From NCBI GenBank assembly GCA_963523555.1, contig CAURDG010000001.1, forward strand, positions 1 through 48,350: a stretch of DNA of 48,350 nt, written 5' to 3'. The DNA comes from an uncultured Cardiobacterium sp. Its GTDB lineage: Bacteria > Pseudomonadota > Gammaproteobacteria > Cardiobacteriales > Cardiobacteriaceae. Both the position numbers and the translations under genes were made by a program. The notes beneath the pieces are model-generated. The model made no database searches, was not told where the DNA came from, and worked only from the letters and a program-made list of their open reading frames with translations. Below, piece after piece: positions 3,365-35,803 of the stretch (the stretch's first letter is position 1; the number at the start of each line of letters is the position of its first letter).

Positions 3365-3487
3365 CAAATCATCATCAAATCCTGAAACCCGCGCGGGTAC
3401 GGGGCGCGGTTACGATTTGGCATATTATTTGCTTTACATCATAAAGCGCGCATTATACGTGCATAGATGCAAAAGCAAGGAATAAAA

Positions 3488-17086: not shown

Positions 17087-17433
17087 CAAGACCCTTCTAT
17101 GACGGGCGCATCAGTCTGGGCAATATCCTGACGATTATCGGGATGCTGGTGGCGGGGTTCTGGTTCTTTGCCAACGGTGAAAAGAAAGACGCTTTGCAGG
17201 ATGCGCAGATTGAGGCAAATAAATCTACGCTGAAAGAATTAATTGCCGCCGAGCAGCAGGCGAGGAAGGAAGGATTTATCGCGGAGCAGCAGGCGCGCAA
17301 GGAAGCGGTACAGGAGTTGCGCCTCAGGGTGGATGCTGACCGCGCAGAGATGCGGCAGCTTTTTGACAAGCTGGAAGCCAAGCTGGGGCATATGGACAGC
17401 AAGATTGACGCGCTAATCAAGCAGGGGCAGTAA
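17083..17433 (+). CDS. Membrane-anchored coiled-coil protein, possible holin-type lysis protein
   Basis: ISLGNILTIIGML TM helix and coiled coil. Confidence 0.45.
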   Translation: MTRPFYDGRISLGNILTIIGMLVAGFWFFANGEKKDALQDAQIEANKSTLKELIAAEQQARKEGFIAEQQARKEAVQELRLRVDADRAEMRQLFDKLEAKLGHMDSKIDALIKQGQ

Positions 17434-17927
17434 TGGCCAGACTCACGACGGAGCAGTGGGAGAAGATACGCGCGGACTATGAAGCACGTGGTCTGTCTTA
17501 TTCCGAGCTGGCCGAGATGTACGGGGTGAACAAGTCCAACATCTCACGCCGTGCCAAAGCGGAAGGATGGAATCAGGCGGAAACGCAACGGCTGATTGCT
17601 GCAACCGTTGAAAATGAAAAGGAAAAGCTAGCGTTGCGCAACGAAACGCAACGGCTAAACGCAACGTTGCGTAGTGCTGTGCAAGAGGAAGTATTCGACC
17701 GCCTCGCCTTCGAGTTACAGAACAACGCAGACTTTCAAGCAGCGAGGGATAAGGCAAGGGCGCTGCTCGCCGAAACCGACAAGATGGGCGATGTGGTACA
17801 GGCGGCCAATGTGTTCACCATGCAGCGCAAGGCAATGCTGGGCGATGGTCCGGCGGTCGCGGTGCAGGTAAACAGCAACGCGCCTGCCCGGATTGAGCGG
17901 GTGGTGGTGGATGCCGATCCGCATTAA
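17433..17927 (+). CDS. terS: Terminase small subunit
   Basis: WEKIRADYE...ELAEMYGV..SNISRRAKAEGW HTH directly upstream of terL. Confidence 0.85.
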   Translation: MARLTTEQWEKIRADYEARGLSYSELAEMYGVNKSNISRRAKAEGWNQAETQRLIAATVENEKEKLALRNETQRLNATLRSAVQEEVFDRLAFELQNNADFQAARDKARALLAETDKMGDVVQAANVFTMQRKAMLGDGPAVAVQVNSNAPARIERVVVDADPH

Positions 17928-19167
17928 CACCCCGCGCTGGGCGTTGCCGTTACTTAACCCGGCACGCTACAAGGGCGCGCATGGCGGACGTGGCGGCGGC
18001 AAGTCGCACTTCTTCGCCGAGATGGTGGTAGAGGAGCACATCATGAACCCGCACAGCAAGACGGTGTGCATCCGCGAGATTCAGAAGTCCTTGCGGCATA
18101 GCGTAAAGGCACTGATAGAAAGCAAGATTGAGGCGCTGGGCGTGTCGTCGCTGTTTGACGTGCAGCGCGACCTGATTCTCTCGAAGCAGGGCAAAGGATT
18201 GATTATCTTCCAGGGGATGCAGGACCACACCGCCGACAGTATCAAGTCGCTGGAAGATTTTGACCGCGCCTGGATTGAGGAGGCGCAAAGCATATCGGCG
18301 CGCTCGCTTAGTCTGCTGCGCCCGACCATCCGTAAAGCGGGGAGCGAGATTTGGGCAAGTTGGAACCCGCAGAACGAGACTGACCCGATAGACCGCCTGC
18401 TGCGCGCCGACCCACCGGAGAACAGCATCGTGGTGCAGGTCAATTTGCATGACAACCCGTTTGCCAGTGCCGAGACCTGGGAAGAGTATGCAGATGACCG
18501 CGAGCGCGCCAAGCGCAAGCAGGCAGCGGGCGACCGCAATGCCTGGGCGGACTTCGAACATATCTGGCATGGCGAATATGCCGTGCTGTCCGGGGCGCAG
18601 GTGCTGGCTGGTTGCTATGTGGTCGAGGCGTTCGAACCATCCCCGGATTGGGACGGTCCCTACTTCGGGGCTGACTGGGGCTTTGCCACCGACCCGACGG
18701 TGCTTATCAAGTGTTGGCTGTCCGGCAAGACCCTGTACATCGAGCGTGAGGCTTACGGCGAGCAGGTGGAGACGGTGGACATGCCGCAATTCTTCGATCA
18801 CATCGAAGGCGCAAGGCAACACATCATCCGTGCCGACAACGCCCGCCCGGAGATGATTAGCCACATGCGCCGTCACGGTTTCCCCGGTATCCGTGCCGCC
18901 GACAAATGGCCGGGCAGCGTGGAAGACGGCATCAGTTTCCTGCGCGGGCTGGACGACATCATCATCCACCCGCGCTGCAAATACACCGCCGAAGAAGCGC
19001 GGCTGTGGAGCTACAAGACCGACCGCCTGACCGGTGACCCGCTGCCGCAGTTGGCACCGGGTTCGGACCATTGTTGGGACGCTGTGCGCTATAGCCTGTC
19101 TCCCATCATTCGCGGACGCGGCAGTGTGTCCGTGGTCGGCGGCGCCAGGCGCAAATTCAACCGATAA
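17911..19167 (+). CDS. terL: Terminase large subunit, PBSX family
   Basis: HGGRGGGKS, WIEEAQ, WNP, GADWGF, DHCWDAVRY. Confidence 0.95.
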   Translation: MPIRINTPRWALPLLNPARYKGAHGGRGGGKSHFFAEMVVEEHIMNPHSKTVCIREIQKSLRHSVKALIESKIEALGVSSLFDVQRDLILSKQGKGLIIFQGMQDHTADSIKSLEDFDRAWIEEAQSISARSLSLLRPTIRKAGSEIWASWNPQNETDPIDRLLRADPPENSIVVQVNLHDNPFASAETWEEYADDRERAKRKQAAGDRNAWADFEHIWHGEYAVLSGAQVLAGCYVVEAFEPSPDWDGPYFGADWGFATDPTVLIKCWLSGKTLYIEREAYGEQVETVDMPQFFDHIEGARQHIIRADNARPEMISHMRRHGFPGIRAADKWPGSVEDGISFLRGLDDIIIHPRCKYTAEEARLWSYKTDRLTGDPLPQLAPGSDHCWDAVRYSLSPIIRGRGSVSVVGGARRKFNR

Positions 19168-19208: not shown

Positions 19209-19607
19209 ATGACAAAAGACATTCCCTACAACAAACCGTCCTTCCTGCACTGGGAAGGACACCCGACCAACAGCCGCGCAGTGCTCACCGCAGGCGAGGC
19301 ATTCAAGACCGGTGAGCTGCTGGTGTTTACCGCCAAAGGCTACGAACCCTACAAGGGCACGGCACTGACGGCAGACGCCACCAAGGCACCGCAGGGTGTC
19401 GTCGTCGCTATCGCCCTGGAAGATGCGGCCAAGGGCGGCAAAGCTGCCTGCATTGTCCGCGTTGCCACGGTGATGAAGGACAAGCTGACGGGCGTCGCGG
19501 CGGATGCCTTCGACACCGGCAAGCCGCTGGCGGGCTTTGATGCCCATTTCTCGCGGCAGCAAATTGCGCTGGTGACGAGCATTGACGCGCAGCGGGCATT
19601 CAAATGA
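19209..19607 (+). CDS. Putative head decoration protein
   Basis: Small beta-rich protein adjacent to protease; AAGGAG SD. Confidence 0.55.
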   Translation: MTKDIPYNKPSFLHWEGHPTNSRAVLTAGEAFKTGELLVFTAKGYEPYKGTALTADATKAPQGVVVAIALEDAAKGGKAACIVRVATVMKDKLTGVAADAFDTGKPLAGFDAHFSRQQIALVTSIDAQRAFK

Positions 19608-20503
19608 ACGGCATCACCCTCGGCGTCCTGCGTCTCTCGCTGGACGAGCGGCGCAAAGTCAAAGGCACGGCCTACGCGGGCGGGGTGCTGTCCTACTACG
19701 GCGACCACATCGCTATTGACCTCGACAGCCTGCAATTCAGCGGCAAACAAATCCCGCTCCTGCATAACCACGACCGTGACCGCTGCGTCGGTTACGGCTG
19801 GCTGGCGCGTGAAGGCAAGGCGCTCACCGTCCACGGCGAGATGCTAAGTAATGACCACGCCGCCGAAATCATCAAGGCTGCTGACGACGGCCTGGAATGG
19901 CAGATGTCGGTGCATATCGAAGCGGGGCGGGTGCTGACCCGTCATGCGGGCGACATGGTCAATGGTGAGGCGCTGGCCGTGGATGACGTGCTGGTGATGA
20001 CCGACGGCGTCATCCGCGAGGTGTCTTTTACCCCGACCGGCGTCGATGCCGATACCTCGGCCAGCATCCTCTCTCTATCCCTGACGAAGGAAATCTCCAT
20101 GAACAAACCCGACAACACCCCCGATGAAAGAGACGCGCGCATCGCCAACATAGAACAATTACTGGCGTCATGGGGAAGCTGGTCGCGACAGGATGTCCTG
20201 CCCAAAGCTGCGCGTAACAGCATGGCATTTATCACAGAATACAATACTGCCAATCCACAATACTTTGCCCAAGTGCTTTTTGAACAAACCAATACGGCAA
20301 TGCTAATACTGAAACAGCGGCATAAACGGATATACCAAGTTCTGGAATCACGCTATCTATACAACAATTATGATGATAAAGATGTAGGGAGAAGAATAGG
20401 CATATCGGAACAAACCGTAAGAGTATGGCGCAATCAGGGGCATATGTTTATTGATGGGCGTCTGGCAGATAAATTTCCTGTAAAAGAAGCAAATATTTCT
20501 TGA
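19604..20503 (+). CDS. Chimeric ORF: prohead protease (truncated near 20146) fused in frame to a second Q-like antiterminator
   Basis: AYAGG, IPLLHNHD, WQMSV, IREVSFTPTGVD protease motifs, then IEQLLASWGSWSR...VGRRIGISEQTVRVWR Q-like region with lower GC; internal ATG at 20099 with AAGGA SD. Confidence 0.8.
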   Translation: MNGITLGVLRLSLDERRKVKGTAYAGGVLSYYGDHIAIDLDSLQFSGKQIPLLHNHDRDRCVGYGWLAREGKALTVHGEMLSNDHAAEIIKAADDGLEWQMSVHIEAGRVLTRHAGDMVNGEALAVDDVLVMTDGVIREVSFTPTGVDADTSASILSLSLTKEISMNKPDNTPDERDARIANIEQLLASWGSWSRQDVLPKAARNSMAFITEYNTANPQYFAQVLFEQTNTAMLILKQRHKRIYQVLESRYLYNNYDDKDVGRRIGISEQTVRVWRNQGHMFIDGRLADKFPVKEANIS

Positions 20504-20627
20504 CGCGCTAGCGGGGAAATACTACAATTTACCCAATCTCGAAGAAGTGTAAAGAAATTTACGCTTTTTTTCCAGATAGGCAGGTATCACCTGCCTTTTT
20601 CGCAGCCGCCGCAAGGCGGTTTTTTTA
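20500..20627 (+). promoter_or_regulatory. Second PR'-like promoter followed by terminators
   Basis: TTGACG(20500)-17 bp-TACAAT(20523); hairpin and U-tract at 20578-20600 and 20604-20627. Confidence 0.75.
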
Positions 20628-20678
20628 TGCCTGCGTACAGCGGGCTTTTTTATTGCACAACTGTGCAAGGAGAATATT

Positions 20679-21107
20679 ATGGGCTTGTCATATGAAATGA
20701 AAAAGAAATATGCAGAAACGATTAATGCACTGTTTGATGGAGCCGTCCGTGCAACGCCTGATCAGATCAATGAAACGCTCTGTCTTTATACAGACAAGAT
20801 GATTCTTGATATCACCAATTGCAGCAAGAACATTACAAACTTTGCATTCAATGTTTTCTATACATTCACTTTCTCGCATTTCACTAAATTTGCTGTTCAA
20901 TACGCGCTTGGACGATGGTTTCCATCCATGTCTTTGCTGGATGATTTTGTTAAATGGAGTGCCGTAGAAAAAGCAGATTATGAATTTAGTGGCTTTATTG
21001 CGGACTGGATATCTGAACTTACAAAAAGACGTAAATTTGTTGGCTGTGTATATACAGCTAGAGCCAATTGGCGTTCTCGATTTGAAATTGAATTGCTTGG
21101 AATTTAA
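20679..21107 (+). CDS. Low-GC hypothetical protein, paralogue of 16011-16361
   Basis: AAGGAG SD; similar N- and C-terminal motifs. Confidence 0.7.
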   Translation: MGLSYEMKKKYAETINALFDGAVRATPDQINETLCLYTDKMILDITNCSKNITNFAFNVFYTFTFSHFTKFAVQYALGRWFPSMSLLDDFVKWSAVEKADYEFSGFIADWISELTKRRKFVGCVYTARANWRSRFEIELLGI

Positions 21108-21161
21108 TCTTAAAATAATCTCTCATAGAGCAGGGTTTAATCCTGCTCTATGATAATATTT

Positions 21162-21425
21162 TTATTCCTTAGCTTGATGTAATTTATCAAGCTCCTCAAA
21201 AAGTTCTTCAGTAGGAGATTTATCGCTGCGTGCGCATAGGAAATCACCATCAAAAAATCTGCAATTTGTAACGACAGCACCAAAAAAAGACAGAACTAGG
21301 CAAATAATAAAATCCCGTAGTAAAATATAGAATTTAAGCCAGCTATCATCTTTATCTTGCATATGATAGAGCAAAAATAAACTTACCCAAAATACCATCT
21401 CAAAAAAATATATTTTTAAGAACAT
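21162..21425 (-). CDS. Low-GC two-TM membrane protein
   Basis: AAGGA SD; convergent on the 20679 ORF across a hairpin at 21123-21153. Confidence 0.6.
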   Translation of the reverse strand: MFLKIYFFEMVFWVSLFLLYHMQDKDDSWLKFYILLRDFIICLVLSFFGAVVTNCRFFDGDFLCARSDKSPTEELFEELDKLHQAKE

Positions 21426-21596
21426 TTTTCTTTTCCTTTAACTAATTACAAGTAAATTAATTGTAGCAGCTATAGCCATTCAACGCTAAGATAAAGTATA
21501 GGTGATGGCGTTTGCTCCCTGTTAATCGGACTCGCTTCCGGTTTTATAGTGTCACTACTGCCGCCTTCGGGCGGCAGCTTTTTTTTGCCTGAGCCG

Positions 21597-21813
21597 CCAA
21601 GCGGCGTAAATACTGGGTTCGTCAAGCGGCGTAGTTGCTGGATTCTCGCCAAAGCGGGAAAAACACGGTATTTCGTCGCTTTGCGGTTTATTTAACCCTT
21701 TCTCGCTGATGCGAGCTGTTCCAGCCCCCAAACCCCTTTCCCAATGGAGGAAGGGGTTTTTTGTGCATATTTTTAGGTTTGGACAGGCTCCAAGCGGCAT
21801 AAATGCTGGGGTT
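21597..21813 (+). repeat. Three copies of a ~23-bp motif CAAGCGGCRTARWTRCTGGR
   Basis: Copies at 21597-21619, 21622-21644 and 21790-21813. Confidence 0.65.
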
Positions 21814-21839
21814 CCGGCTTTATGCCGAAATCTTCCGAG

Positions 21840-22387
21840 CGTACTACGACCTCTTCACCGAGTTTGGTGTGACCGAACCGACGACCAACATGCAGTTTTC
21901 CAGCGCGACTGCCGACCTCGCCCTCACCATTGAGCAGACCATCCGCACCATGAAGAAGGGGCTGCGCGGTGATACGGCTTCCGGGGTGACCGTCCTCTGT
22001 TCGCCGGAATTCTTCGACGCACTGGTGACGCACAAGTCCACCAAGGACGCCTGGCTGCGTTACCAGGACAACGTGTTGGCGCGCGAGAACACCAACGGCA
22101 AGTTCACCTGGAAGGGTGCGGTGTTTGAAATCTACGACTACACCCTTGGCGAGACGCCGATGATTGAGGCGGGACACGCGCATGGGTTCCTCACCGGCAT
22201 GTACAACGGTTTCGTCCGCTACAACGCCCCGGCCAACATGATTACCGAGGCAAACAAACTGGCGCGGCCTTTCTACATCTCGACCGAAATGGGCGAGCAC
22301 AACCGTGGTGTCTCCATCTACACCGAGACCAACCCGCTGCCGCTCTGCCTGCGTCCGCAAACCTTGATGCACTTCAAGAGCGCGTGA
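21840..22387 (+). pseudogene. Major capsid protein (lambda E-like), C-terminal half only
   Basis: YDLFTEFGVT, CSPEFFDALVTH, YNAPAN, ETNPLPLCLRP; N-terminal half replaced by foreign sequence. Confidence 0.85.
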
Positions 22388-22845
22388 TGTACGCCGCACC
22401 ACAAGACCTCGTCACCCGCTTCGGCGAGCGCGAGATGGCGCAAATCGCGGGTGATGCCGCACCCACTAACAGCAAGCTGCTGGCGGCCTGCCTGGATGCG
22501 GCGCAACTCGCGGACAGTTACCTCAGCCGTGCCGTCGTCCTGCCGCTTGCCACCGTGCCAGCGGTGCTGGTTGGGGTGTGCGCCGACATTGCCCGCTACC
22601 GCCTACACGATGACCAGAACAAGGAGGGCGGTGACCAAGGCAAAACCACCATGCGGATGCGCTACGAGGACGCCATCAAATGGCTGGAAGGGGTAGCGGC
22701 AGGCACCATTCTGCTCTTCCCCAAAGAACGGCAGGCCGACCCGAAAGCGCCGCACCCGCTCACCGGCAACCACCGCATTGCCGTAGTCGCACCGCCGGTG
22801 GTGTTTGACCAGACCACACTGGACAAGATGGATGCTGTTCGTTGA
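22387..22845 (+). CDS. Mu gp36-like (DUF1320) head-tail adaptor
   Basis: YA...DL..RFGE, DSYL, CADIARYRL, RYEDAIKWL. Confidence 0.85.
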   Translation: MYAAPQDLVTRFGEREMAQIAGDAAPTNSKLLAACLDAAQLADSYLSRAVVLPLATVPAVLVGVCADIARYRLHDDQNKEGGDQGKTTMRMRYEDAIKWLEGVAAGTILLFPKERQADPKAPHPLTGNHRIAVVAPPVVFDQTTLDKMDAVR

Positions 22846-23248
22846 CACCCCCGGCCTTGATGCCGCGACAGCCAGACTGCGCGAGCTGGCAGCCCAGGGC
22901 AAAGACCTGGGCCCCGCGCTCGCGGAAATCGGCGAGGAAGAAGTCACCAACATCCTGCTGCGCTTCGAGCGCGAGGAAGACCCGCAGGGCAATCCGTGGG
23001 AGCCTTTTGCCGACAATAGCCCGCGCCTGCTGGAAGACGGCAAACTGCTGCAAGACACCGGGCGGCTCAAAGGTTCTATCCAGGCGCAAGTCCTGGGCGG
23101 TAGCGTGCTGCTAGTCGGCAGCAACGTCAAGTACGCCCCCTTCCATCAATTCGGCACCGTGTTCATCCCGGCGCGCCCCTTCCTCGGCGTGTCGGATGAC
23201 CTCAAAGATGCCATAGCGGACATTCTCCATGCCCACTTCAACCTTTGA
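22832..23248 (+). CDS. Phage virion morphogenesis protein (Mu gpG-like)
   Basis: L.DTGRLK.SI, VGSNVKYA..HQFG, IPARPFLG. Confidence 0.85.
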   Translation: MLFVDTPGLDAATARLRELAAQGKDLGPALAEIGEEEVTNILLRFEREEDPQGNPWEPFADNSPRLLEDGKLLQDTGRLKGSIQAQVLGGSVLLVGSNVKYAPFHQFGTVFIPARPFLGVSDDLKDAIADILHAHFNL

Positions 23249-23681
23249 CGTGAACGCCGCCTACGCGCCGATCGCCGCGCGCCTTGCGCAGGTGGACGGC
23301 GTCAAGGCAGTGCGTGGGGTGAACGACCTCACACAAATCCTGCGCGGTCAGACCACCGGCACCGATGGTTATGTGTACCTCTACTTTGACGGGGTCGCCC
23401 CGGTCGAGGATGCCGGCAATGGCCGCCATCAGAAAGTGCGCGTGACCTACACCGTGGTCATTGCCTCGCAGAACTACAACCGCGATGGGATGCCGCGCGG
23501 GGTCGGCAAACTGATTGGCGGCGTGATGCAGGCGCTGGCCGGTTTTGCGCCGCTGGACGCCGATGAACGCAGCCGGACGCGGCTCAAACCCGCGAACGGC
23601 GGGCAGCCGGTACACGCCTATGGTCACAGCCTCTATCCACTCAAATACACCCTAGACCTTATTTACCAATCTCAGGAGTAA
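23229..23681 (+). CDS. Putative tail terminator / connector
   Basis: Size and position before the tail tube; QALAGF.P motif. Confidence 0.6.
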   Translation: MPTSTFDVNAAYAPIAARLAQVDGVKAVRGVNDLTQILRGQTTGTDGYVYLYFDGVAPVEDAGNGRHQKVRVTYTVVIASQNYNRDGMPRGVGKLIGGVMQALAGFAPLDADERSRTRLKPANGGQPVHAYGHSLYPLKYTLDLIYQSQE

Positions 23682-23685
23682 AACC

Positions 23686-24435
23686 ATGCCACAACTACGA
23701 CACGACGGCTTCATTGGCGAGGGAACCCTCTACATCCGCCGCCTTGACCGCACCGACCTCGGCCTGATTCCAATGGGCAACGCCACCAGTTTCTCGGTGG
23801 CGGTGGAAAGTGAGGTGAAAGAGCGCCTCAGCAAAATGCGCGAGAACTACGGCGCAGTGCTCAACACCGTCATCCTGCCGAAATCGGGCGAGCTAAAAAT
23901 CACCCTCGACGACTTCAACGAAGAAAACTTTGCCATGGTCTTCATGGGGGCGCTGACGAAAGCACAAATGACCGCGCAGACCGTCTCGGATGAAGAAGTG
24001 GACGTTGACCTTGAGCGCTACCTCAAACTGGCGCACGGCTACCTCAACGAAGCGGGGATTGTCGTGAAGAGCCCAGGCGGGCAGACCATTGCCGCCGAGC
24101 ACTACGACATCCACCGCCGCCTCGGCATGATCCGCCTCAAAGACACCGCTGGCGTCAGCAAAGGGCAGAAAATCAAAATCAGCTACACCACGGCAGCCTG
24201 GGATGCGTGGGCGATTGCCGCCAACACCGACAGCCAAATCAAGTGCGAACTGCTGCTGGACGGACGCAACCGTGCCAACGGGGCAGACGTAAAAGTCCAC
24301 ATCCCGAAGGCGACCCTCTCGGCAGGCGGCGCGTTTGAATTCTTCTCGGATGACTTCAACACCATCGAACTTTCCGGGCGCCCGGAAGTGCCGGAAGGCG
24401 GCACCAGTCCGTTCACCGTGACCGTCAAGGCGTGA
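23686..24435 (+). CDS. Major tail (tube) protein
   Basis: FIGEGTLY...MGNATSFS, LLDGRN; no sheath gene seen. Confidence 0.75.
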   Translation: MPQLRHDGFIGEGTLYIRRLDRTDLGLIPMGNATSFSVAVESEVKERLSKMRENYGAVLNTVILPKSGELKITLDDFNEENFAMVFMGALTKAQMTAQTVSDEEVDVDLERYLKLAHGYLNEAGIVVKSPGGQTIAAEHYDIHRRLGMIRLKDTAGVSKGQKIKISYTTAAWDAWAIAANTDSQIKCELLLDGRNRANGADVKVHIPKATLSAGGAFEFFSDDFNTIELSGRPEVPEGGTSPFTVTVKA

Positions 24436-24443
24436 GGCGAAGG

Positions 24444-24596
24444 ATGAAAATCAAGGCAAGCAAGCCCTTCACCCATGCCGGGCAGACCGTGAATACCGGG
24501 GACGTGATAGACGTCCCCGCTGACGCGGCAGCGTGGCTGATAGCGCAGGGCGTTGCCGTGGAAGTGAAAGAAGACAAACCGCGAGCGGCGCAATAG
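24444..24596 (+). CDS. Small virion-associated protein (50 aa)
   Basis: Manual translation MKIKASKPFTHAGQTVNTGDVIDVPADAAAWLIAQGVA. Confidence 0.6.
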   Translation: MKIKASKPFTHAGQTVNTGDVIDVPADAAAWLIAQGVAVEVKEDKPRAAQ

Positions 24597-24637
24597 CAGC
24601 GCGCAAAGCAAAACCCCCGCGAGGTCTTCGCGGGGCA

Positions 24638-24666
24638 TTGCAGGTGCTGCCACCAAAGATTAACAT
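24638..24666 (+). promoter_or_regulatory. Sigma70-like promoter of the nuclease-PRTase moron
   Basis: TTGCAG-17 bp-TAACAT. Confidence 0.55.
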
Positions 24667-24693
24667 GATCCACCTCGCACAGGCGCAATCACC

Positions 24694-25554
24694 ATGAATC
24701 ATCAAAAGACCATAGAAAAACTCAAACAGGCAGGTTTCCCTTCCAAATGTCTGGAGAGATTGCAAAATATGCAACGCGGCGACGACAACAACAAAAAAGG
24801 GGCATTCTATGAGCGTATGTTTACCTTTTACCGTATTTTGCAAGAAACAGAAAAGCTGTTGAATGTTGAACAATCTCCTATCAATAGCGACATTCTTTTC
24901 AGCAATGCGGAACTGGCATTTGTGGATGACCTTTGCATCACTTTCTCTGAAAAGAAAGAGCGCTACCAGCTAAAAAATTCCCCTACGGCAGGCAAGGCAG
25001 ACAAATTGCACGAAGTGTTTGATGACCAAAAGCGCATGGATGAATGCCTGCAACAATCGGCACAATCCTTTTTGGTATGTAGCGACGAAAAAACCGTTAA
25101 TGATAATAATCGCGCTGGCAGAATTGCCAGCCAATATTTTCCGGCATATACCACCAGCATGGAATATGCGCGTGAGATGGCGCAACTTCTGCACTGCGTC
25201 TGCCCGGACGATAGCCAGCATGATACCGCATTGAGATTACTGGGCGCCGGAGCGGGTGAGGCGCAATCATTGCACAAGCCTTTGCGGCAGATTTGGCATG
25301 ACGTGCTACAATGCGCACATCCAAACATTTTTTATTTTGACAAAACAGAAGGTTATCCGCCGTTATTTGAGGCGTGCTGCACAAAATGCGGTATCACACT
25401 GGCAGCGGCGACAATATCGTACAAAGGGTTCAGCATCATGATTACGCCAGAAATGCGCACCAAAATTGCTGATGAAGACTGGTCAAACCTTGCCGATGCA
25501 AGACAGGTACTGGAACGCCTGCAAGTACTGGCCTTCACGGTGGAAGCGTCATGA
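24694..25554 (+). CDS. Putative PD-(D/E)XK nuclease (Cap4/DUF4297-like N-terminal domain)
   Basis: G..N.KG..YE ... FVDDL ... YQLK motif; lower GC than flanks. Confidence 0.6.
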   Translation: MNHQKTIEKLKQAGFPSKCLERLQNMQRGDDNNKKGAFYERMFTFYRILQETEKLLNVEQSPINSDILFSNAELAFVDDLCITFSEKKERYQLKNSPTAGKADKLHEVFDDQKRMDECLQQSAQSFLVCSDEKTVNDNNRAGRIASQYFPAYTTSMEYAREMAQLLHCVCPDDSQHDTALRLLGAGAGEAQSLHKPLRQIWHDVLQCAHPNIFYFDKTEGYPPLFEACCTKCGITLAAATISYKGFSIMITPEMRTKIADEDWSNLADARQVLERLQVLAFTVEAS

Positions 25555-26228
25555 ACCGCCGCGACTTGACCCGTTACACGGGAGAACGGGAAAAACAGGC
25601 GCTTAACATATTGCGCACGCCAAATGTCGCTGTTCCTGACTATCAGCAGGCAATGCGCGTCCTCGGGCAAACTTTGGGACGAATCATCCCCGTAGACGGG
25701 CAAACGCTGGTCGTTTCCACCTCCGAAGATGCCGATTACCTCGCCAAAGGCTGCATTGAAAGCCTGAAAACGCGGGAAGTGACATACAAACTGGCGGTTT
25801 TCTGGAACCATCACTATACCCTGCCCAATGGCGAAAGCGTCGCCCCCATCCTGAACCGCTACCTGCAACCGGGGTATGAGCGTTGCACCCGCATCATCCT
25901 GCTCAAATCCATTATCTCCGGTAGTTGCGTCATCCGTACCAACCTGCTTGCCCTGCTGGCAAGTATGCCCGAACCGAAAAATATCGCCGTTGCCGCGCCG
26001 GTGATGTACTACAAGGGCGAAGAAAGCCTGCGTCGGGAATTTCCGCCCGCTATTGCGGACAAATTCACCTTCTACACCTTCGCCATTGACTACGCTCGCG
26101 ACGAAAAAGGCAACGTACTGGACGGCATTGGCGGCGACGTCTATCCACATCTGGGACTTGCCGACCAGCCGGTGCGGACGGGCAAGCCCTATATGCCGCA
26201 ACTGGTTACAGATGCGCTGTTTGAATAA
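25551..26228 (+). CDS. Uracil phosphoribosyltransferase-like protein with altered PRPP motif
   Basis: L.ILR....Y.Q.M..LG N-terminus; AID..RDEKGNVLDGIGGD C-terminal UPRT-like signature; IILLKSIISGS in place of VLDPMLATG. Confidence 0.7.
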   Translation: MNRRDLTRYTGEREKQALNILRTPNVAVPDYQQAMRVLGQTLGRIIPVDGQTLVVSTSEDADYLAKGCIESLKTREVTYKLAVFWNHHYTLPNGESVAPILNRYLQPGYERCTRIILLKSIISGSCVIRTNLLALLASMPEPKNIAVAAPVMYYKGEESLRREFPPAIADKFTFYTFAIDYARDEKGNVLDGIGGDVYPHLGLADQPVRTGKPYMPQLVTDALFE

Positions 26229-26240
26229 CACAATGACACC

Positions 26241-26263
26241 AGCCCCCGCAAGGGGGCTTTTTT
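26241..26263 (+). terminator. Rho-independent terminator
   Basis: AGCCCCCGCAAGGGGGCTTTTT. Confidence 0.8.
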
Positions 26264-26275
26264 AATGGACGCCAC

Positions 26276-27739
26276 ATGTTCAACCGCTTTTTCAAGAAAG
26301 ACGCCCCCAAAACCCGCCGCGTTGTGGTCAAGGCCGGGGCGCAGTACGTTGACCCGACCTTTTCCCTGACCGTCGCTGATGTCGATACTGTCCTCCAACG
26401 TGCCAACCTGACCCGCAGTGACCTGCAAAAACTGCTCTACGACGACGAAATCTACGGTGCTTGTGAGCGGCGCATTTCGGGCGTCCTCGGCAATCCGTGG
26501 CGTCTGGAAGGGGACAATACCCCGTGGCTGTACGACGCCGTCAGCAACATCTTCGAGGCGGCGCTACGCATCATCATGCAGGCGAAGTGGCTGGGCGCAA
26601 GCGTGGGCGAGCTCATTTGGGCAGCGGATGCAGACGGCATCATGCGGGTGCAAAGTATCGCCCCGCGCAAAATCGAACGCTTTGTGCAGCGTGACGCCGG
26701 GCTGATGTTCAAGGAGCAGGGCGGGACAGAAATCCTCACCCTGCCGGAAAAAGTGCTGTACAGCGGCGTCAACGTCCACAAGGACAACCCCTACGGGGAT
26801 GCCCTGCTCTCGCGCGTCTATTGGGCATGGTTCAACAAAAACTACGGCGAACAGTTTTGGTCGCGCTACGCCGAACGCCACGCCTCGCCGCTGACCGTCA
26901 TCAAGAGCATGGTCAACACCGCCAACCCTGACGATGCGCGGCAGGAACTCGCCGCACTGGCAGCGGCAGCGGCAAATGCCGTGGCCGATGGCACCGTCGC
27001 CATCAGCGACCAGGACAGTATTGAATTTGTCGAGGCCACCAACGACGGTGCGGCCCATCAAAAATTTGTGACCCATCAAATACGCCGTATCCAGAAAACA
27101 TTAATCGGGCGCGTCCTCACCTCGGAACTGGACAGCGGCAGCCGTGCGGCGCAGGAAACCGACGACGGCTTTACGCAAAACCTGCTGGAAAGCGACCTGA
27201 CCTTCTGCGAAGCGGGCATCAACCACATCGTGGACTGCCTGCTCACCGTGAACGGTCTTGATCCGGAAGGCGTGTATTTTGCCTTCGAGCGCAAAAAGGG
27301 CATCGACAAAAGCCGCTGGGAGCGCGATGTGGCGCTCATTAACAGCGGCGCCATCACCTTCACGGCGCAATACTACCTTGATAACTACGGCCTCGAAGCA
27401 CAGCACTTTACCGTGAACACCGTAGAGAGACCGGTAGCATCACAAATGTCCCTTGCCCTGCCTGCTGGCGATGTTTGCTGCGCTGCCGGACACCTCACCC
27501 CCGGCGCGCAAGAGGTTGAGGATGGCATCCAGCGCGCGCTTGCCACCCTGCCTGCCAGTATCGATGCGGATGCCATCGCACAGACCATCAACGCAGCGAG
27601 TGATGAAGCCGACCTGATGCGCCGCCTCGCCCTGCTCTACGACGACAACGACCCATCGCACTACGCCGTCTGGCTGGAGCAGGCCATGGTGCTGGCGATG
27701 GCGCAAGGCTACTACCAGGCAGCCAAGGACATCGTATGA
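26276..27739 (+). CDS. Portal protein (Mu gp29 / DUF935-like)
   Basis: NPYGDALLSRVYW.W, ERHASP, LIGRVLTS...GSRA. Confidence 0.85.
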   Translation: MFNRFFKKDAPKTRRVVVKAGAQYVDPTFSLTVADVDTVLQRANLTRSDLQKLLYDDEIYGACERRISGVLGNPWRLEGDNTPWLYDAVSNIFEAALRIIMQAKWLGASVGELIWAADADGIMRVQSIAPRKIERFVQRDAGLMFKEQGGTEILTLPEKVLYSGVNVHKDNPYGDALLSRVYWAWFNKNYGEQFWSRYAERHASPLTVIKSMVNTANPDDARQELAALAAAAANAVADGTVAISDQDSIEFVEATNDGAAHQKFVTHQIRRIQKTLIGRVLTSELDSGSRAAQETDDGFTQNLLESDLTFCEAGINHIVDCLLTVNGLDPEGVYFAFERKKGIDKSRWERDVALINSGAITFTAQYYLDNYGLEAQHFTVNTVERPVASQMSLALPAGDVCCAAGHLTPGAQEVEDGIQRALATLPASIDADAIAQTINAASDEADLMRRLALLYDDNDPSHYAVWLEQAMVLAMAQGYYQAAKDIV

Positions 27740-29013
27740 ACCCCCTGCAAGCCCGTTACCCGGAAGCGTTTGAATACCTGCGCGCGCGGGGTGTCGAGCC
27801 GTCCGCCGACTTCTACGACCGCGTTGAAGCGGCGCGCAGACAGGCATGGACGATGAGCAAACTGAGCGACCTCGACCATATCCAGCGCATCAAGGACTCG
27901 CTGGAAAAAGCCATCGCCGAAGGCATGAGCTTCGACAACTGGCGCAAGGAAAATCTCGCTGACCTGCAAGGCCTGCCGAAGAGCTATCAAGAAACCGTCT
28001 TCCGCACGGCGGTGCAGAGCAGCTACAACGCCGGACGCTGGGCACACTTCCGCGATCACGCCGAGCGCCGCCCCATCCTGCGCTATACCGCCATAAACGA
28101 CCGCCGCACCCGCCCGGCACACCGTGCCTTGCACGGACTGATGATGCCGGTGGATGACCCGCGCTGGCAGACACTGGCGCCGCCAGGGGGGTTCAACTGC
28201 CGCTGCACCCTGATGAGCCTGTCGGAACGGCAGGCGAAAGGCATGGGCTACACCGGCGCGCCGCAGGACATCCCGACCTGGACGGACAAACACGGCGTCG
28301 AACACACCGCCGCCCCGGACAAAGGCTGGAACCACTCACCCGAACACGACCTGACCGACCTCTTGCGCGAGCGGGAACAGCGGCTGAACATGAACGCGGC
28401 AGTGTATGACAGCGGGGATGCCCCGCTGAGTCCTGAACCGTGGCATCCGCCGCTGCCGACAGCTGGCAATGCCTTCGAGGAGGCGCGTTATGACGTTGTT
28501 ACGCGAGGACAGCAAGACGGGCTAGAGCATGGCCGCGTGGTTGATGCAAACGGACAGGTTATAGATACACGGCAAGGTAAAGAACAGGCTATCAGCTATC
28601 AGGATATTATTAACCTGCTGCCGGGAACTACCCTGTATCACAACCATCCAAGCAACATGGGATTAAGCATGGCAGATATTGAATTTGCCGGGCAGGCTGG
28701 TTTGGCATCAGTTGTTGCCTTTGGGACAACACAGGAGGCGGCGTATAGCGTCAGTATCCTGTCCGGTTGGAGCGAGATGTATGCCGCAATCTACGATGCT
28801 AAGAAAATAGTCCGCCAGAAAGTATCCAGGTTGTTTCTGAGTGGTAAAATAAACGAGGGAGAAGCAGCCGCTATGTACGCGCATATCATGGCGTTGCGGC
28901 TTTCAGACCAAGGGTTGATTACATATAAAATAGCCCCTGCAAGTAAAGAAATGGCAGACCTGATAAATCGTTATGCTGCTGAAATTGAACAATGGCGCAA
29001 GGAGACTAAATAA
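27736..29013 (+). CDS. MuF minor head protein with C-terminal JAB/MPN-like extension
   Basis: D.RTRPAH, PPGGFNCRC MuF motifs; C-terminal EHG...HNHPS...LS.AD. Confidence 0.8.
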   Translation: MNPLQARYPEAFEYLRARGVEPSADFYDRVEAARRQAWTMSKLSDLDHIQRIKDSLEKAIAEGMSFDNWRKENLADLQGLPKSYQETVFRTAVQSSYNAGRWAHFRDHAERRPILRYTAINDRRTRPAHRALHGLMMPVDDPRWQTLAPPGGFNCRCTLMSLSERQAKGMGYTGAPQDIPTWTDKHGVEHTAAPDKGWNHSPEHDLTDLLREREQRLNMNAAVYDSGDAPLSPEPWHPPLPTAGNAFEEARYDVVTRGQQDGLEHGRVVDANGQVIDTRQGKEQAISYQDIINLLPGTTLYHNHPSNMGLSMADIEFAGQAGLASVVAFGTTQEAAYSVSILSGWSEMYAAIYDAKKIVRQKVSRLFLSGKINEGEAAAMYAHIMALRLSDQGLITYKIAPASKEMADLINRYAAEIEQWRKETK

Positions 29014-29183
29014 TGCCCATTCTGCATGACCTGAGCTGTTTTAGCCCGCCAGAAAAGTTGCGGGCATTGCTGGAAGAACTGCGCGCAATCAAAGAACCAT
29101 CCCCTCTCTTGGAACAGACTATCCGGAGTGTCGAAGATGACCTCGCCTTTTCCGAAAGCCTCTACGGTAAGACCGCCGCCTGA
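29013..29183 (+). CDS. Small 56-aa protein coupled to MuF, possible immunity partner
   Basis: TAATG overlap, AAGGAG SD; MPILHDLSCFSPPEKLRALLEELRAIKE... Confidence 0.55.
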   Translation: MPILHDLSCFSPPEKLRALLEELRAIKEPSPLLEQTIRSVEDDLAFSESLYGKTAA

Positions 29184-29304
29184 AATGCCCCCATCCCCCA
29201 GCCCCTGCAAACGCAGGGGCTTTTTAATGGGCAAAACAAAACCCCGTGAAGTTTGCCGCTTCACGGGGTTTTTCATTCAACCCTTGATGCAGAAGGAAAG
29301 AACG

Positions 29305-31577: not shown

Positions 31578-31603
31578 TGCGGGCATTTTTATCGGAATAA
31601 CAC

Positions 31604-34600
31604 ATGGCAGATAACCGTTTGGACGTTGGCCTGCTGATACACGCAGGCGTAGAGGGATTGGACCAGCTTGACCGCGTCATCGGCGAGCTGGATCAGACCG
31701 GGGAAAGCACGGAACAACTGCGCACGGAAGCCGCGCGCCTGCGCCAGCAGTGGGACAACCTCAGCCCGGACGAGCAGGCCGCCGCCCTGGAACGCCTGGG
31801 GCGCGCGACCAACGACGCCACGCAGCGCGTTCGCGAAGTCAGGGAAGAACTGGATGACCTCAGCAAAGCCAAAATCACCCTCGGTCTCGACAATGACGAA
31901 AAAATCAAGCAGCAAATAGAAGAAGTCAATGCCGCTTTCCGCCTGTTGCAAGAGCAGGGTGGCCTTACCCACGAAGAGCTGATGCGCGCCGCCGATCACC
32001 ACCGCGCCCGCCTGCAGGAACTTGAAGCGGAACTGAGCAGAATCGGCCCGGAACTGGACGACCTCAGCAAAGCCAAAATCACCCTCGGCATCGACAATGA
32101 CGACAATGTACGCAAGCAGATAGAAGAAGTTACCGAAGCCTACAAGCTGCTGCGTGAAGAAGGCAACCTCTCGCACGAAGAACTGGTACGCGCGACGGAA
32201 GCGCACCGCGCCCGTGTTGAAGAGCTGGAAGCCCAACTGGGACGGGTGCGCCCCAGTCTGGAAGACATCGCCGCCGGTGTCGGCAAAATGGTCGGAGCCT
32301 TTGCCGGGCTGACCAGCATCGCCAAGGACGCCATGGAATTTGAAACGGCAATGGCGGGCGTGAAAAAAGTGGTGGACGGGACACCAGAACAAATGGCATC
32401 CCTTGCCGGGCAGGTAAAAAACCTCGCCTACGAGCTGGGCATGGTGCCGGAAGCAGTGGCCGAAATTGCCGCCCAGGGCGGACAGCTCGGTGTCGCCTTT
32501 GCCGACCTGCCCGAATTTACCCGCCTTGCCGGACAAATGTCGGTCGCCTTTGGCATGACTGCCGGGCAGGCAGCGGAAGCAGCAGCGAAAATCAGCAACG
32601 TCTTCGGCATCAGCCTCGCCGAAATGCGCCAGTTGGGCGACGCCATCAACGTGCTGGGTAACAACACTGCCGCCAAAGAAGCGGAAATCAGCGAGGCACT
32701 GCTACGTATCGGCGGCACCGCCAAACAGTTTGGTCTTGCCGCCGAACAGGCTGCAGCGCTTGCGGACGCCTTTATCGCCCTGGGCAAATCGCCGGAAGTC
32801 GCCGGGACGGCCATCAATGCCCTGCTCACCAAGCTGCAAACCGCTCCGGCACAGGGCAAAGAATTTCAGGATGCGCTGAAGTCTATCGGCATGGAAGCCA
32901 AGCAGCTTGCCAAAGATATCCACGACAACCCCGAACAGGCGCTGCTCAGTTTCCTGGGCAAACTGGAAACCCTCGACAAACAGCAGCGCGCCATTGTCCT
33001 CACCAAGCTCTTTGGCGCCGAATATGCCGACGATATCTCGCTGGCGGCGGGCAGCCTCGACACCCTGCGCCAGGCCTTCGGTCTTGTCGCCGACAAAACC
33101 GAGACCGCCGGTGCCATGCAAAAAGAATTTGAAGCGGCAATGAGCACGACCGGCGCGAAAGTCGAGCAAGCCAAAATCGCCATCGGCAACATCGCCAAGA
33201 CCCTGGGCGCACAACTGCTGCCGATTATCGGTGCCGTCGCCGACGGCATCGGCGGCGCAGCGAACGCCATCAACGACTTTGCCGAGCGTTACCCGCTGAT
33301 TACCGAATTTGCCACCTACATGGCCGGTGCCAAACTTGCCGCTGTCGGCCTCGAAGGCGCGATGGACGTGCTGGGCGTGTCGATGGAAGACATGACCACC
33401 TACGCCGTGAACGGTTTTGGCCGCTTCAAAGAGGCCGTTTCCAGCGGTGCGGGCGCGCTTGGCGGCCTCAAAGCCGTGCTGGCGGGGATGGGGCAGTTAT
33501 GGGTCACCGCCGGGCTTACCGCCGCTGTCGCCCTCTACGAGGCACTAAAAAGCAACGTGGATGAAGTCAACAAGGCGCAACACAAAGCCATGCAGACTTG
33601 GGCGGACGCAGGCATCGCCCAGCAGCAGCTCAATATGGCCCTTGCCGCCGGCTCGGATGTGCTCGGTGACTACGTGCAAAAGCAGCAAGCGGTGCTGAAA
33701 GCCGAACTCGCCGCCATCGACCAGCGCATTGCCAGCTACAAGGCGCAGCAGAAAGCAGCGGAAGAGCGTTTTTTTACCGACGAAAAAACCGTTGCAGCGG
33801 CGAAAAAAGCCATCGCTGCCGAAGAAGAGCGACGCACGTCTATTCAGCAAACTGTGGACGCCACGCAAAAGCTGATCGACAAGGCCAAAGCAGAAGCAGA
33901 GGCTACAGAAAAAGCGGCGCGAGCAAAAGAACTGTCAGCGCAAGGGTGGGACAAGCTGACCTCGCGAATGGATGCCGCCAGCCGCAAAATGCAGGAAATC
34001 CCGGAGAACAGCCAACGTGTCATTGAGGGATTAGACGACATCATTAAAAGCGGCAATCAGAGCGCTGCGGCGCTGGAACTTGCTTTCCGGCAGGCAATTG
34101 ACCGGGTGGAAACCGTTGAAGCATTGCAAGAGGTGCAGGATAAACTGACTGACCTCTCGCGTAGCGGGCTGGACGTCAAGGTGAATTTCGAGGCGCTCGC
34201 CGATGCCATGAAAGCACGTGCGCAAGAACTGCCGAAACCGCTGGATGATGCAGCCTACGCTCTCAAAGCCCTGGGGCTAGAAGTAGAGCAAGTACAAAAC
34301 GGCATCAGCAAGGCTGCCACGCAAACGCTCAAGGACTTTGGTGAGGCCGCCGCACGCTTCGGCACGGATGCAGACAAAATGCGCACCATTTTCCAGGCGG
34401 CGCTAAAAAACATGCACAGTCCGGCGGAAGTTCAGGCACTTATTGAAGCGCTGCGCAAGGTAGGTGAACAGGCGGGCTTGACCAAAGCGGAAATTGAGGC
34501 CATCGCCCGCAGCGCCGGGGACGCGGCAAGCAAAACCGCGCAGGCATTCGCCAAAATCGGGGTGGACATCGCTGCCGTCAGCAGAGGCATCAGCAGCAGC

Positions 34601-35803
34601 GCGCGGCAGAGCTTTGATGGCTTTGTAGAGGCGGCCAAGGCGGCGAAAGAAGAAGGGGTGAATAGCGCCAAGCTCATCCGTGAGGCCTTTGACCACATCG
34701 CGACAGGCCTCAAAACCAAAGAGGAGTTTGCTGAATTTAACCGCACGCTGGCGCAGACCGGCGTAGCAGGGCAACTTGCCAGCGGACAAATGCAAATCCT
34801 GCGTGCCGGGATGCAGGGCGGCGCAGAGGCAGCAAATGCGATGCGCGAAGCAACGAAACAGAGCAACGAAGCCACCCGCGAGAGCGCCGAGGTATCGAAA
34901 GTGGCAGCGGACGCGAAAGAAAAAGAAGCCGAAGCGGAGCGCAAGGCGGCGGAAGCAGAAAAAGAGGCGCTGGACAAAAACAGCGAAGCGAAAGAGAAAA
35001 ACGCGGAAGCCACCGGCAAAGCGGCGAACCGTGGCCGCGCCCTCTACGATGCCAGCAAACTCAGCGCAGAGGGCATTGCCAACCTGGACGACGCGTTAAA
35101 CCGCATGAACGACAACGTGACCACGGGGACGCAGGGCTACTTTGATTTGGTGGTCAAACAGGCGCGGGCGGCGGACGAATACATCAAGGACACCGAAAAA
35201 GCGGTGGCCGCAACCGATAACCTCACCCAGAAAATCAGCGACGGCACCGTTTCCATGCAGGACATTGCCGAGGCCACCCATGCCGCCTCCAGCCGCATCG
35301 CGCAACTGGACAGTACCACCCTCAACAACCTGCACGCCGCTATCGACGAAGCGCGGCAAAAGCTCAAAGAGTTGGAAGAACAGGCGAGGGATAGCGCCGA
35401 CAGCCTGGAAGCCGAGCTGGCACAACTCCGGGGGGACAACAGCAAGACGGCGGCGCTGGAACAGGAACGCAAACTGCGCGAACTCAACGCCAAGCTGCAT
35501 GAGGCAGAACTGCGCAATAACGCCGAAGAGATTGCCCAATACCGCCGCGCCCTTGACCTGCAACAGCAAATCGGACGCGAAAAACAGCAGCAGGCAGCGG
35601 CGAAGAAAGCTGAAGAACAGCAGCGCCAGCAGGCGAGTAACAACAACGGACGCAGCAGCAACGGTAATACGGGCAGTAATGGACGCGGTTATACCGCTGC
35701 CGAAGTGGCGGATGCCTTTGACGCCCGGATAGCCAAGGCGCGGCGCGAAGGCCGGGATGACCTCGCCCGCGAACTGCACGACGAAATGAAACGGAGGACC
35801 TGA
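31604..35803 (+). CDS. Tail tape measure protein (TP901-type)
   Basis: 1399 aa Ala-rich helical; FETAMAGVKKVVD, LGDAINVLGNN motifs. Confidence 0.93.
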   Translation: MADNRLDVGLLIHAGVEGLDQLDRVIGELDQTGESTEQLRTEAARLRQQWDNLSPDEQAAALERLGRATNDATQRVREVREELDDLSKAKITLGLDNDEKIKQQIEEVNAAFRLLQEQGGLTHEELMRAADHHRARLQELEAELSRIGPELDDLSKAKITLGIDNDDNVRKQIEEVTEAYKLLREEGNLSHEELVRATEAHRARVEELEAQLGRVRPSLEDIAAGVGKMVGAFAGLTSIAKDAMEFETAMAGVKKVVDGTPEQMASLAGQVKNLAYELGMVPEAVAEIAAQGGQLGVAFADLPEFTRLAGQMSVAFGMTAGQAAEAAAKISNVFGISLAEMRQLGDAINVLGNNTAAKEAEISEALLRIGGTAKQFGLAAEQAAALADAFIALGKSPEVAGTAINALLTKLQTAPAQGKEFQDALKSIGMEAKQLAKDIHDNPEQALLSFLGKLETLDKQQRAIVLTKLFGAEYADDISLAAGSLDTLRQAFGLVADKTETAGAMQKEFEAAMSTTGAKVEQAKIAIGNIAKTLGAQLLPIIGAVADGIGGAANAINDFAERYPLITEFATYMAGAKLAAVGLEGAMDVLGVSMEDMTTYAVNGFGRFKEAVSSGAGALGGLKAVLAGMGQLWVTAGLTAAVALYEALKSNVDEVNKAQHKAMQTWADAGIAQQQLNMALAAGSDVLGDYVQKQQAVLKAELAAIDQRIASYKAQQKAAEERFFTDEKTVAAAKKAIAAEEERRTSIQQTVDATQKLIDKAKAEAEATEKAARAKELSAQGWDKLTSRMDAASRKMQEIPENSQRVIEGLDDIIKSGNQSAAALELAFRQAIDRVETVEALQEVQDKLTDLSRSGLDVKVNFEALADAMKARAQELPKPLDDAAYALKALGLEVEQVQNGISKAATQTLKDFGEAAARFGTDADKMRTIFQAALKNMHSPAEVQALIEALRKVGEQAGLTKAEIEAIARSAGDAASKTAQAFAKIGVDIAAVSRGISSSARQSFDGFVEAAKAAKEEGVNSAKLIREAFDHIATGLKTKEEFAEFNRTLAQTGVAGQLASGQMQILRAGMQGGAEAANAMREATKQSNEATRESAEVSKVAADAKEKEAEAERKAAEAEKEALDKNSEAKEKNAEATGKAANRGRALYDASKLSAEGIANLDDALNRMNDNVTTGTQGYFDLVVKQARAADEYIKDTEKAVAATDNLTQKISDGTVSMQDIAEATHAASSRIAQLDSTTLNNLHAAIDEARQKLKELEEQARDSADSLEAELAQLRGDNSKTAALEQERKLRELNAKLHEAELRNNAEEIAQYRRALDLQQQIGREKQQQAAAKKAEEQQRQQASNNNGRSSNGNTGSNGRGYTAAEVADAFDARIAKARREGRDDLARELHDEMKRRT

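Follow-up and report, generated by a model that had tools for sequence, protein, structure and literature searches.

Two overlapping genes carried by a temperate prophage of an uncultured Cardiobacterium sp. constitute a real, conserved two-gene module, apparently without an earlier description, that is probably an anti-phage system. The stretch of DNA analysed, called the window below, is 48,350 nucleotides long (contig CAURDG010000001.1 of assembly GCA_963523555.1). The first gene product (ORF1) is, judging from its modelled structure, a nuclease of the Cap4/DUF4297 type, with cutting of double-stranded DNA as its putative activity. The second (ORF2) has the fold of uracil phosphoribosyltransferase (UPRT; Upp in its canonical form), but its sequence suggests that the chemistry with phosphoribosyl pyrophosphate (PRPP) appears lost, with the pocket still under strong selection. 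A sequence-only reading of the window had described two ATGA-coupled ORFs, and they are present, with the overlap, on the plus strand:

24694-25554, plus strand: ORF1, 286 amino acids, Cap4/DUF4297-type PD-(D/E)XK-like nuclease
25551-26228, plus strand: ORF2, 225 amino acids, uracil phosphoribosyltransferase fold with a remodelled site

Homologues of the two genes are tightly linked in genome, metagenome and plasmid loci, in agreement with the co-occurrence on which the sequence-only reading depended. Word searches returned 55 relatives of ORF2 and just six close relatives of ORF1; the ORF1 family was assembled from genes upstream of ORF2 homologues. A nuclease gene, whole or partial, lies directly upstream of the phosphoribosyltransferase (PRT) gene in 57 of 60 genome loci; 45 of these loci had trained the nuclease profile, and among the other 15 the genes are linked in 12. 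Among 82 further loci (two on plasmids and 80 from metagenomes, the best 80 of 374), the nuclease is whole in 61 and partial in 14 (75/82), four loci stop at a contig edge and three have a solo PRT. Nuclease-profile screens of 401, 351 and 351 whole genomes and one viral scan gave 16 places outside the window, each with a full PRT downstream. Pairwise identities of nuclease and PRT correlate (r 0.90; 0/2000 permutations). The loci come from Pseudomonadota, Bacteroidota, Cyanobacteriota, Bacillota and Acidobacteriota. One Segatella pair is labelled by NCBI as 'DUF4297 domain-containing protein' and 'uracil phosphoribosyltransferase', and the other named members that we saw are annotated as hypothetical.

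The pair was found in one of 400 genomes of the phylum and in none of 40 relatives of the host. Isolated phage genomes contained no match for ORF2 or an ORF1 homologue, a DNA search of E. coli genomes gave no match, and predicted viral structures returned generic PRTs only. Thirteen viral loci comprise five linked pairs, three cases at contig edges and five solo PRTs, four of which have one junction in common. Viral contigs L068, L069, L071 and L072 are identical or nearly identical to L070 from its position 4777 onward, starting about 30 bp upstream of the PRT, and have other DNA in place of the L070 nuclease, which amounts to one swap event. Because one cluster at 90% identity contained both proteins, we searched for nuclease-PRT fusions; none was present among proteins of 542-2000 residues, although a fusion near 500 could be missed. 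The search yielded two PRT-IrrE fusions of about 590 amino acids (P0278, P0279), composed of a PRT domain and an IrrE/M78-like peptidase. Their PRT domain is decayed, with K119 and PGIGG (ORF2 numbering and motif, see below) lost, and groups weakly with cyanobacterial copies.

Neither ORF1 nor ORF2 had a match in Pfam, PADLOC, PHROGs or NCBIfam; one NCBIfam row for the window proteins, at E 0.059, was rejected. The ORF1 sequence profile returned noise only when compared with solved structures. The AF2 model of ORF1 (predicted local distance difference test, pLDDT, 90) has the restriction-like fold of the Cap4 type that had been predicted. Its best structural match is Cap4 (6vm6; Z 10.8, root-mean-square deviation, rmsd, 3.8 over 159 residues), followed by Avs3 (Z 9.0), LmuA (8.8), a second Cap4 (7yib; 8.1) and Hachiman (7.6); with a second LmuA, all of the top six matches are Cap4-type. 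Foldseek ranks the same group first, with a best E of just 1.9e-3. The nuclease fold, including a Cap4-type helical extension, spans residues ~30-215, and the last 70 residues, seen as part of the full-length model and without a fold search of that part alone, gave no clear match. The motifs quoted earlier for ORF1 and ORF2 are all present and conserved among homologues. In an alignment of 48 rows (46 homologues hand-picked on length and motif, plus ORF1 and one close relative), E40, D78, D79, Q92 and Q112 occur in all 48 and K94 in 47; E40, D78, D79, Q92 and K94 are the putative catalytic residues. The ORF1 profile retrieved 314 clusters at E <=1e-30 and 695 at E <=0.001 (50%-identity representatives), and in the best 150 of these 695, which are 193-352 amino acids long, the three nuclease motifs were found in 143, 146 and 148. 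Against PF14130, the Pfam family of DUF4297, ORF1 had no match, four of the 48 homologues matched weakly (E <=0.05), and P0229 scored 16.7 bits, below the cut-off of 26.2.

The UPRT layout proposed for ORF2 is borne out by its AF2 model (pLDDT 91), which matches the UPRT fold with Z 21.3 (rmsd 2.4-2.5, 183-184 residues aligned), the next PRT family having Z 12.0. Foldseek links ORF2 to UPRTs at E 1e-9, the ORF2 sequence profile finds UPRT alone among solved structures (E 0.011), hhalign of the ORF2 profile against an Upp profile gives 96%, and 13 of 51 homologues match the Pfam or NCBIfam Upp families at E <=0.1 (best 1.8e-5). The N-terminal helices are kept, and an arm of ~20 residues after helix 2 of Upp is absent from ORF2 in the alignment. 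The following features make up the site:

E59-D60-x-D62, W85, K119-S120, C126, D180, G192-x-G194-G195 and Y198: site features of ORF2
residues 87-107 of ORF2: loop II hairpin

Residues R78, R103, D130 and D199 of UPRT bind pyrophosphate, magnesium and ribose. As reference we used 25 canonical Upp proteins encoded by genomes that also carry ORF2 homologues; in these proteins R78, R103 and D199 occur in 25/25 and D130 in 23/25, being otherwise Glu. Profile alignment pairs K119 of ORF2 with D130 of Upp, N86 with R103 and G195 with D199, and places E59 or D60 opposite R78; the Upp-invariant R78 (LRAG), R103 and D199 (GLGDAGD) are not kept in the ORF2 family. The loss of the acidic residue from the PRPP-binding loop, first noticed in the window protein, extends to its homologues: DPMLATG of Upp becomes K-S-I/V-I/M-S-G/T-S/A-C, with K119 at the D130 position. 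Three of the four replacements of Upp residues are invariant in the ORF2 family (R78 to E/D, D130 to K, D199 to G), and neither of the two ORF2 alignments (51 and 48 rows) shows any variation at E59, D60, D62, W85, K119, S120, C126 or Y198. The description of ORF2 as 'degenerate' thus falls short; the site is remodelled rather than decayed, because the substituted residues do not vary within the family. PRPP, previously listed among the possible ligands, is an unlikely one, since the residues that bind pyrophosphate in Upp are replaced. The family keeps S123-G/T124-S/A125-C126 (5'-phosphate loop) and V/I-x-P-G-I-G-G (base-binding motif). From UPRT structures, we take the retained loop and PGxG motif to bind the 5'-phosphate and the base.

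In a tree of 67 rows, a very long branch with full support separates the ORF2 family from Upp (midpoint root, with a long-branch warning), and four solo PRT copies are nested in paired clades. The host of the window has its own canonical upp, the product of which clusters with proteins named Cardiobacterium, and upp scored above the TIGR01091 cut-off in 19 of 36 genomes tested, with a strong sub-cut-off match in six more. Mean identity is 0.42 for ORF2 and 0.26 for ORF1, which makes ORF2 the better conserved of the two.

A 1:1 complex model built from both alignments supports binding of ORF1 and ORF2 to each other. It scored 0.88 compared with 0.00 for the best of three controls, its runs agree in at least 85% of contacts and the partner pLDDT is at least 88; of 157 solved complexes 116 attain the score mark, as do two of 215 mismatches, counts that are approximate for these alignments. 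In the model, residues 97-107 of the ORF2 loop II hairpin pack against strand 243-249 and helix 173-189 of ORF1, the predicted partner-binding surface of which comprises residues 152-284. The listed interface includes neither of the putative active sites, and any control would therefore have to be allosteric or act via the oligomeric state. No solved complex of these two folds was listed by the fold searches.

The direction of control is suggested by the pattern of gene loss. Over 171 loci, both genes are intact in 132, 18 are at contig edges, the nuclease is broken in 12 and absent in eight, and in one the PRT is broken and the nuclease absent; a broken PRT beside an intact nuclease occurs in 0/171. 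Clustered at 90% identity, the nuclease is broken beside an intact PRT in 9 of 106 clusters and absent in seven. If ORF2 restrains ORF1, loss of the nuclease is expected and loss of the PRT alone is not, and the observed pattern, from a sample biased toward intact PRTs, fits this.

The enrichment near defence genes expected for such a system is moderate. At E <=1e-25, PADLOC matches were obtained for 42 of 288 ORFs around 39 loci and for 2 of 69 ORFs around upp in 25 loci (Fisher p 0.007). After dropping 11 and 1 generic matches, respectively (GlgB, two TnsB, a relaxase, two ABC transporters, an SMC-like protein, two UvrD/Rep helicases and two kinases; one weak control match), the counts are 31/288 and 1/69 (Fisher p 0.010). 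This moderate excess stands, but only 18 of the 39 loci retain a PADLOC match, some merely to candidate PDC families. Direct neighbours include CBASS (L025), Kiwa (L049), DRT (L028, L029), PDC-M01 (L052) and a type III restriction subunit (L107). As judged by Pfam, the settings are prophage (L001, L008), satellite-like (L007, L018), Tn7-like (L003) and conjugative (L036) elements; plasmid contexts occur too.

The reading that we favour, although taken as a whole it falls a little short of even confidence, is a two-subunit anti-phage module in which the nuclease is restrained by a nucleotide-sensing pseudo-UPRT. The parts of this reading differ in strength: an anti-phage role of the pair is likely, restraint of ORF1 by ORF2 seems marginally favoured, gating by a nucleotide is plausible but slightly disfavoured, and a pyrimidine monophosphate as the specific ligand is doubtful, being preferred on the sole ground that ORF2 descends from UPRT. 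ORF1 would be a Cap4-type DNase effector and ORF2 a UPRT-derived subunit that has abandoned PRPP salvage; loop II of ORF2 would bind the non-catalytic half of the nuclease and hold ORF1 off. The remodelled pocket might still take a nucleoside 5'-monophosphate, most likely that of a pyrimidine (dUMP, dTMP, dCMP or a phage-modified form), the level of which would rise with phage-driven breakdown of host DNA or rewiring of pyrimidine metabolism. Once the ligand is bound, loop II would shift, the nuclease would be freed or oligomerised, and the infection would be aborted. According to published reports, Cap4-type nucleases are abortive effectors turned on by a partner, loop II shapes nucleotide binding and ligand choice in XPRT, a PRT, and PUA-Cal-HAD provides a precedent for monophosphate sensing (PMC12871103). 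A more far-reaching version, which we consider rather unlikely, is an immune module in which charge swaps in the PRPP site turned a salvage enzyme into a receptor for a nucleotide, or into an enzyme that cleaves one by new chemistry, and in which the catalytic loop of this protein is coupled to a nuclease of the Cap4 type. Such a module would read the pyrimidine monophosphate pool as a sign of infection without a second-messenger cyclase.

Two other explanations are unlikely but far from negligible, and we give them the same weight. ORF2 might be an active enzyme with new chemistry, E59/D60/D62, K119 and C126 in the former pyrophosphate/magnesium site hydrolysing or exchanging a nucleotide base, and the product or depletion of the substrate switching on the bound nuclease. 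The invariant polar residues in the pocket are more numerous than binding by itself would require, and the motifs are retained in solo copies (L020, L035, L063, L068, L175, L185, L201), whereas the decayed IrrE-fused copies indicate that a PRT motif can be lost when unselected; moreover, the described defence PRTs ShosT and OpnC reportedly act catalytically. The solo copies, however, nest among paired ones and may be recent remnants, and the structure-search matches to ORF2 included no solved structure with such chemistry on a PRT fold. Loop II is needed for catalysis in PRTs, and in the model it is engaged by the partner. Alternatively, the genes might form a protein-protein toxin-antitoxin pair, with ORF2 as a scaffold antitoxin whose pocket is structural; the toxin would be released by a phage protein or by lost expression, or the pair would merely stabilise mobile DNA. 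The small overlapping bicistron, the predicted complex and the loss asymmetry would all fit, as would the mobile and solitary insertions and the intact cassette in a prophage with disrupted head genes. Yet the most conserved ORF2 residues sit in the pocket and not in the interface, many positions of which are variable, and the higher conservation is that of ORF2, not ORF1.

ORF2 acting as an obligatory activator, with the nuclease inert until it meets ligand-bound ORF2, much as Cap4 needs its SAVED domain and signal, is considerably less probable still. Cap4-type domains are indeed reported to need activation, and the modelled interface leaves the nuclease site open, but loss of the PRT would then be harmless, and in this biased sample no broken PRT accompanies an intact nuclease while the reverse occurs 12 times. 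We consider it highly improbable that ORF2 is an ordinary uracil salvage enzyme paired incidentally with a nuclease, despite its UPRT fold and the NCBI name of one homologue. The signature residues are replaced, the branch separating it from Upp is very long and fully supported, the linkage is near-obligate, and many of the genomes already have upp.

Several observations weigh against the favoured reading of a nuclease restrained by a nucleotide sensor. After curation, 21 of the 39 scanned loci are without a defence-like neighbour, and several are solitary beside housekeeping genes (gyrB, rpoC, mutS, thiC); the flanks of the neighbour control were 1.5 kb compared with ~7 kb, and related genomes are not independent. 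Most of the nuclease-first matches are genomes already found via the PRT. The loss asymmetry is likewise biased, as most loci were found through the PRT and intact PRTs were hence favoured, and some nuclease frameshifts may be assembly errors. In ORF2, the register at R78 is uncertain by one residue and rests on profile alignments, a trimmed one of which has a probability of 11%, position 88 is R or H in 48/48 rows and could stand in for R103, and the invariant acids, Lys and Cys suit an active enzyme as well as a sensor. ORF1 of the window deviates from its family at conserved non-catalytic positions (D30 where the family has G, A72 where it has Q, and no Trp at 101). Finally, the role proposed for ORF2 is the reverse of that in described defence systems, where the PRT serves as effector or toxin.

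Solo PRT copies occur in varied settings. In a phage (L063:5231-6672), a solo PRT of the same clade as that of the window follows a 255-residue hydrophobic ORF and stands just before the terminase. In L035:2815-8696 it follows Gabija and a 318-residue protein of no known function (weak propeller and TPR matches), a possible alternative partner. In four Psychrobacter or Psychrobacter-like loci (L004, L015, L175, L185) the module is preceded by mutS and a ferredoxin gene, and a nuclease gene is missing from two of these loci. In L020:7995-8684 (G442:C10) the solo PRT is downstream of genes for a thymidylate synthase, an HD protein and an ADP-ribosylglycohydrolase, with ribonucleotide reductase nearby; the best isolated-phage matches of the thymidylate synthase are in jumbo phages. 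Inspection of this 77-kb contig by eye also showed folA-, dUTPase-, macro- and integrase-like genes but nothing that was obviously housekeeping, and because of this content it looks like a large mobile element. The L020 PRT is a possible decoy or sponge, and solo copies on mobile DNA, such as this one beside thymidylate synthase, could be counter-defence decoys.

The prophage in the window and the cassette with its surroundings comprise the following features:

6062-6748: repressor
17433-19167: terminase
23686-24435: major tail protein (tube)
24557-26252: accessory segment relative to the empty-site phage L106 (blastn blocks stop at 24556 and restart at 26253; junction alignments)
24615-24635, minus strand: GC-rich hairpin at the cassette's left edge, with a terminator call
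24638-24666, plus strand: proposed sigma-70 promoter TTGCAG-17-TAACAT, unverified (7/12 consensus bases; no call by the scan)
26241-26264, plus strand: intrinsic-terminator-like hairpin (26241-26258) and T-run, called by the scan
26276-27739: portal
31604-35803: tape measure
46894-47883: integrase

The insertion was correctly placed between the tail-tube region and the portal, with the major tail protein and a 54-residue gene on its left and the portal on its right. The cassette also deserves the name of accessory, moron-like cargo, as the close relative L106 is without it at the same site: L106 is ~94% identical to window positions 22757-24556 and 26253-29244 by blastn, with just ~86 bp between them. 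Past the same junction, L086 has unrelated DNA, and the cassette is carried by L061, L062/L087, L157, L159 and L160. The tube protein retrieved 22 viral loci, of which three extend to the portal; the cassette is present in two of these and absent from the third. The lower GC content of ORF1 was confirmed (0.463, or 0.495 at third codon positions, compared with 0.593 for the tube, 0.600 for the portal and 0.556 for ORF2); 7% of equal-sized windows have a GC content below that of ORF1, and ORF2 is near the phage average. By contrast, the signals said to be the cassette's own fared poorly. The promoter was not called by a scan of positions 24000-27000, the sole promoter-like site of which is on the minus strand (chance expectation 1.5). 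The terminator is not clearly the cassette's own, because its 3' half and T-run also occur in L106. RNA data, one run giving a single 207-base contig, were uninformative on cassette expression.

At this slot, L086:5945-6928 has different cargo, in which a hairpin resembling that of the window is followed by small hydrophobic ORFs; the end of this contig matches window positions 31581-31698, and the portal is therefore not adjacent there. The head module of the window looks disrupted at 20147-21844, where ~1.7 kb replaces the 3' end of the protease gene and the 5' part of the capsid gene relative to L086, L087 and L088, leaving a protease/Q-like chimera (19604-20503) and a 194-residue capsid fragment (21803-22387); L061 has the same segment. 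The prophage may thus be defective, with the cassette intact. Three repeats with 21-bp spacing at 9535-9611, within an O-like replication gene, are probably origin iterons, and a repeated 20-bp motif by the repressor region (3204-3257 and 6808-6827) probably marks operator sites. Further ORFs of lower GC content at 44535-46412 and 3467-4519, belonging to PHROG families 3364, 5816 and 2384 of no known function, may be more cargo.

The triggers of many anti-phage nucleases are unknown, and this module, with just two proteins, a ligand-responsive loop as their predicted contact and only a few invariant residues in the pocket, is a compact and well-modelled case for testing. Should gating by a nucleotide prove true, sensing of a metabolite pool by a repurposed salvage enzyme would join the inputs that control Cap4-type nucleases, and the usual defence role of PRTs would be reversed. 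As the sequence-only reading supposed, the pairing appears not to be a named system: we found no Cap4/DUF4297 and UPRT combination in PADLOC 2023 or in the literature searched, where the DefensePredictor supplements were available in part, so that the pair may yet be listed as a predicted system. Term searches of PMC10542128 and PMC13434031 for such a pair returned zero.

Compared with Upp (PF14681, TIGR01091; 1vst, 1i5e, 2e55), ORF2 has the same fold, N-terminal helices, 5'-phosphate loop and C-terminal base motif, but it is without R78, R103, D130, D199 and the arm after helix 2, forms a separate clade and is linked to a nuclease. PyrR and PurR, which regulate transcription, also reuse the PRT fold as a nucleotide-binding regulator; ORF2, however, is much nearer UPRT (Z 21 vs ~10) and is a predicted nuclease binder. 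Cap4/DUF4297 effectors (CBASS Cap4, 6vm6 and 7yib; Avs3, 8dgc; LmuA, 9ux8 and 9hqx; Hachiman, 8zue; DUF4297-HerA, 9c1m) share the nuclease fold of ORF1 and likewise act with a partner module, but their partners are a cyclase, SMC ATPase, STAND ATPase, helicase or HerA, and here the partner is a UPRT-fold protein. CBASS has a CD-NTase in the operon, whereas the neighbours in the window are tail and portal genes; a cyclase is nearby only at L025 among the 39 loci scanned, and L025 has its own phospholipase effector. Lamassu, Hachiman, Avs3 and DUF4297-HerA have an SMC ATPase, helicase, STAND or HerA component, whereas the conserved unit here consists of two genes with variable flanks. Because the partners of these systems are lacking, the pair is not CBASS, Lamassu, Hachiman, Avs3 or DUF4297-HerA.

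PUA-Calcineurin-CE-HAD follows a similar proposed logic, in which a nucleoside monophosphate made during infection reportedly switches on a pre-assembled effector (PMC12871103). That system depletes dNTPs and senses m6-dAMP, and as it has no domain in common with the pair, the likeness is one of analogy only. Other PRTs of defence systems are found in type III retrons, ShosT, PsyrT, DprA+PRTase, Ophion (OpnC) and DS-32A, where the PRT is the described or proposed effector (10.1101/2025.09.30.679545, 10.1101/2025.01.08.631726, PMC9122126, 10.1101/2022.05.11.491447, PMC13092281). The ORF2 protein of the window had no match at E up to 1 among PADLOC 2023 models, a library that OpnC and DS-32A postdate. 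As is proposed for ORF2, the PRTs of these systems represent recruitment of the PRT fold to phage defence, often in prophage hotspots. Their partners in the same sources are a reverse transcriptase, DprA, rSAM/PHP or NADAR, whereas the partner of ORF2 is a Cap4-type nuclease.

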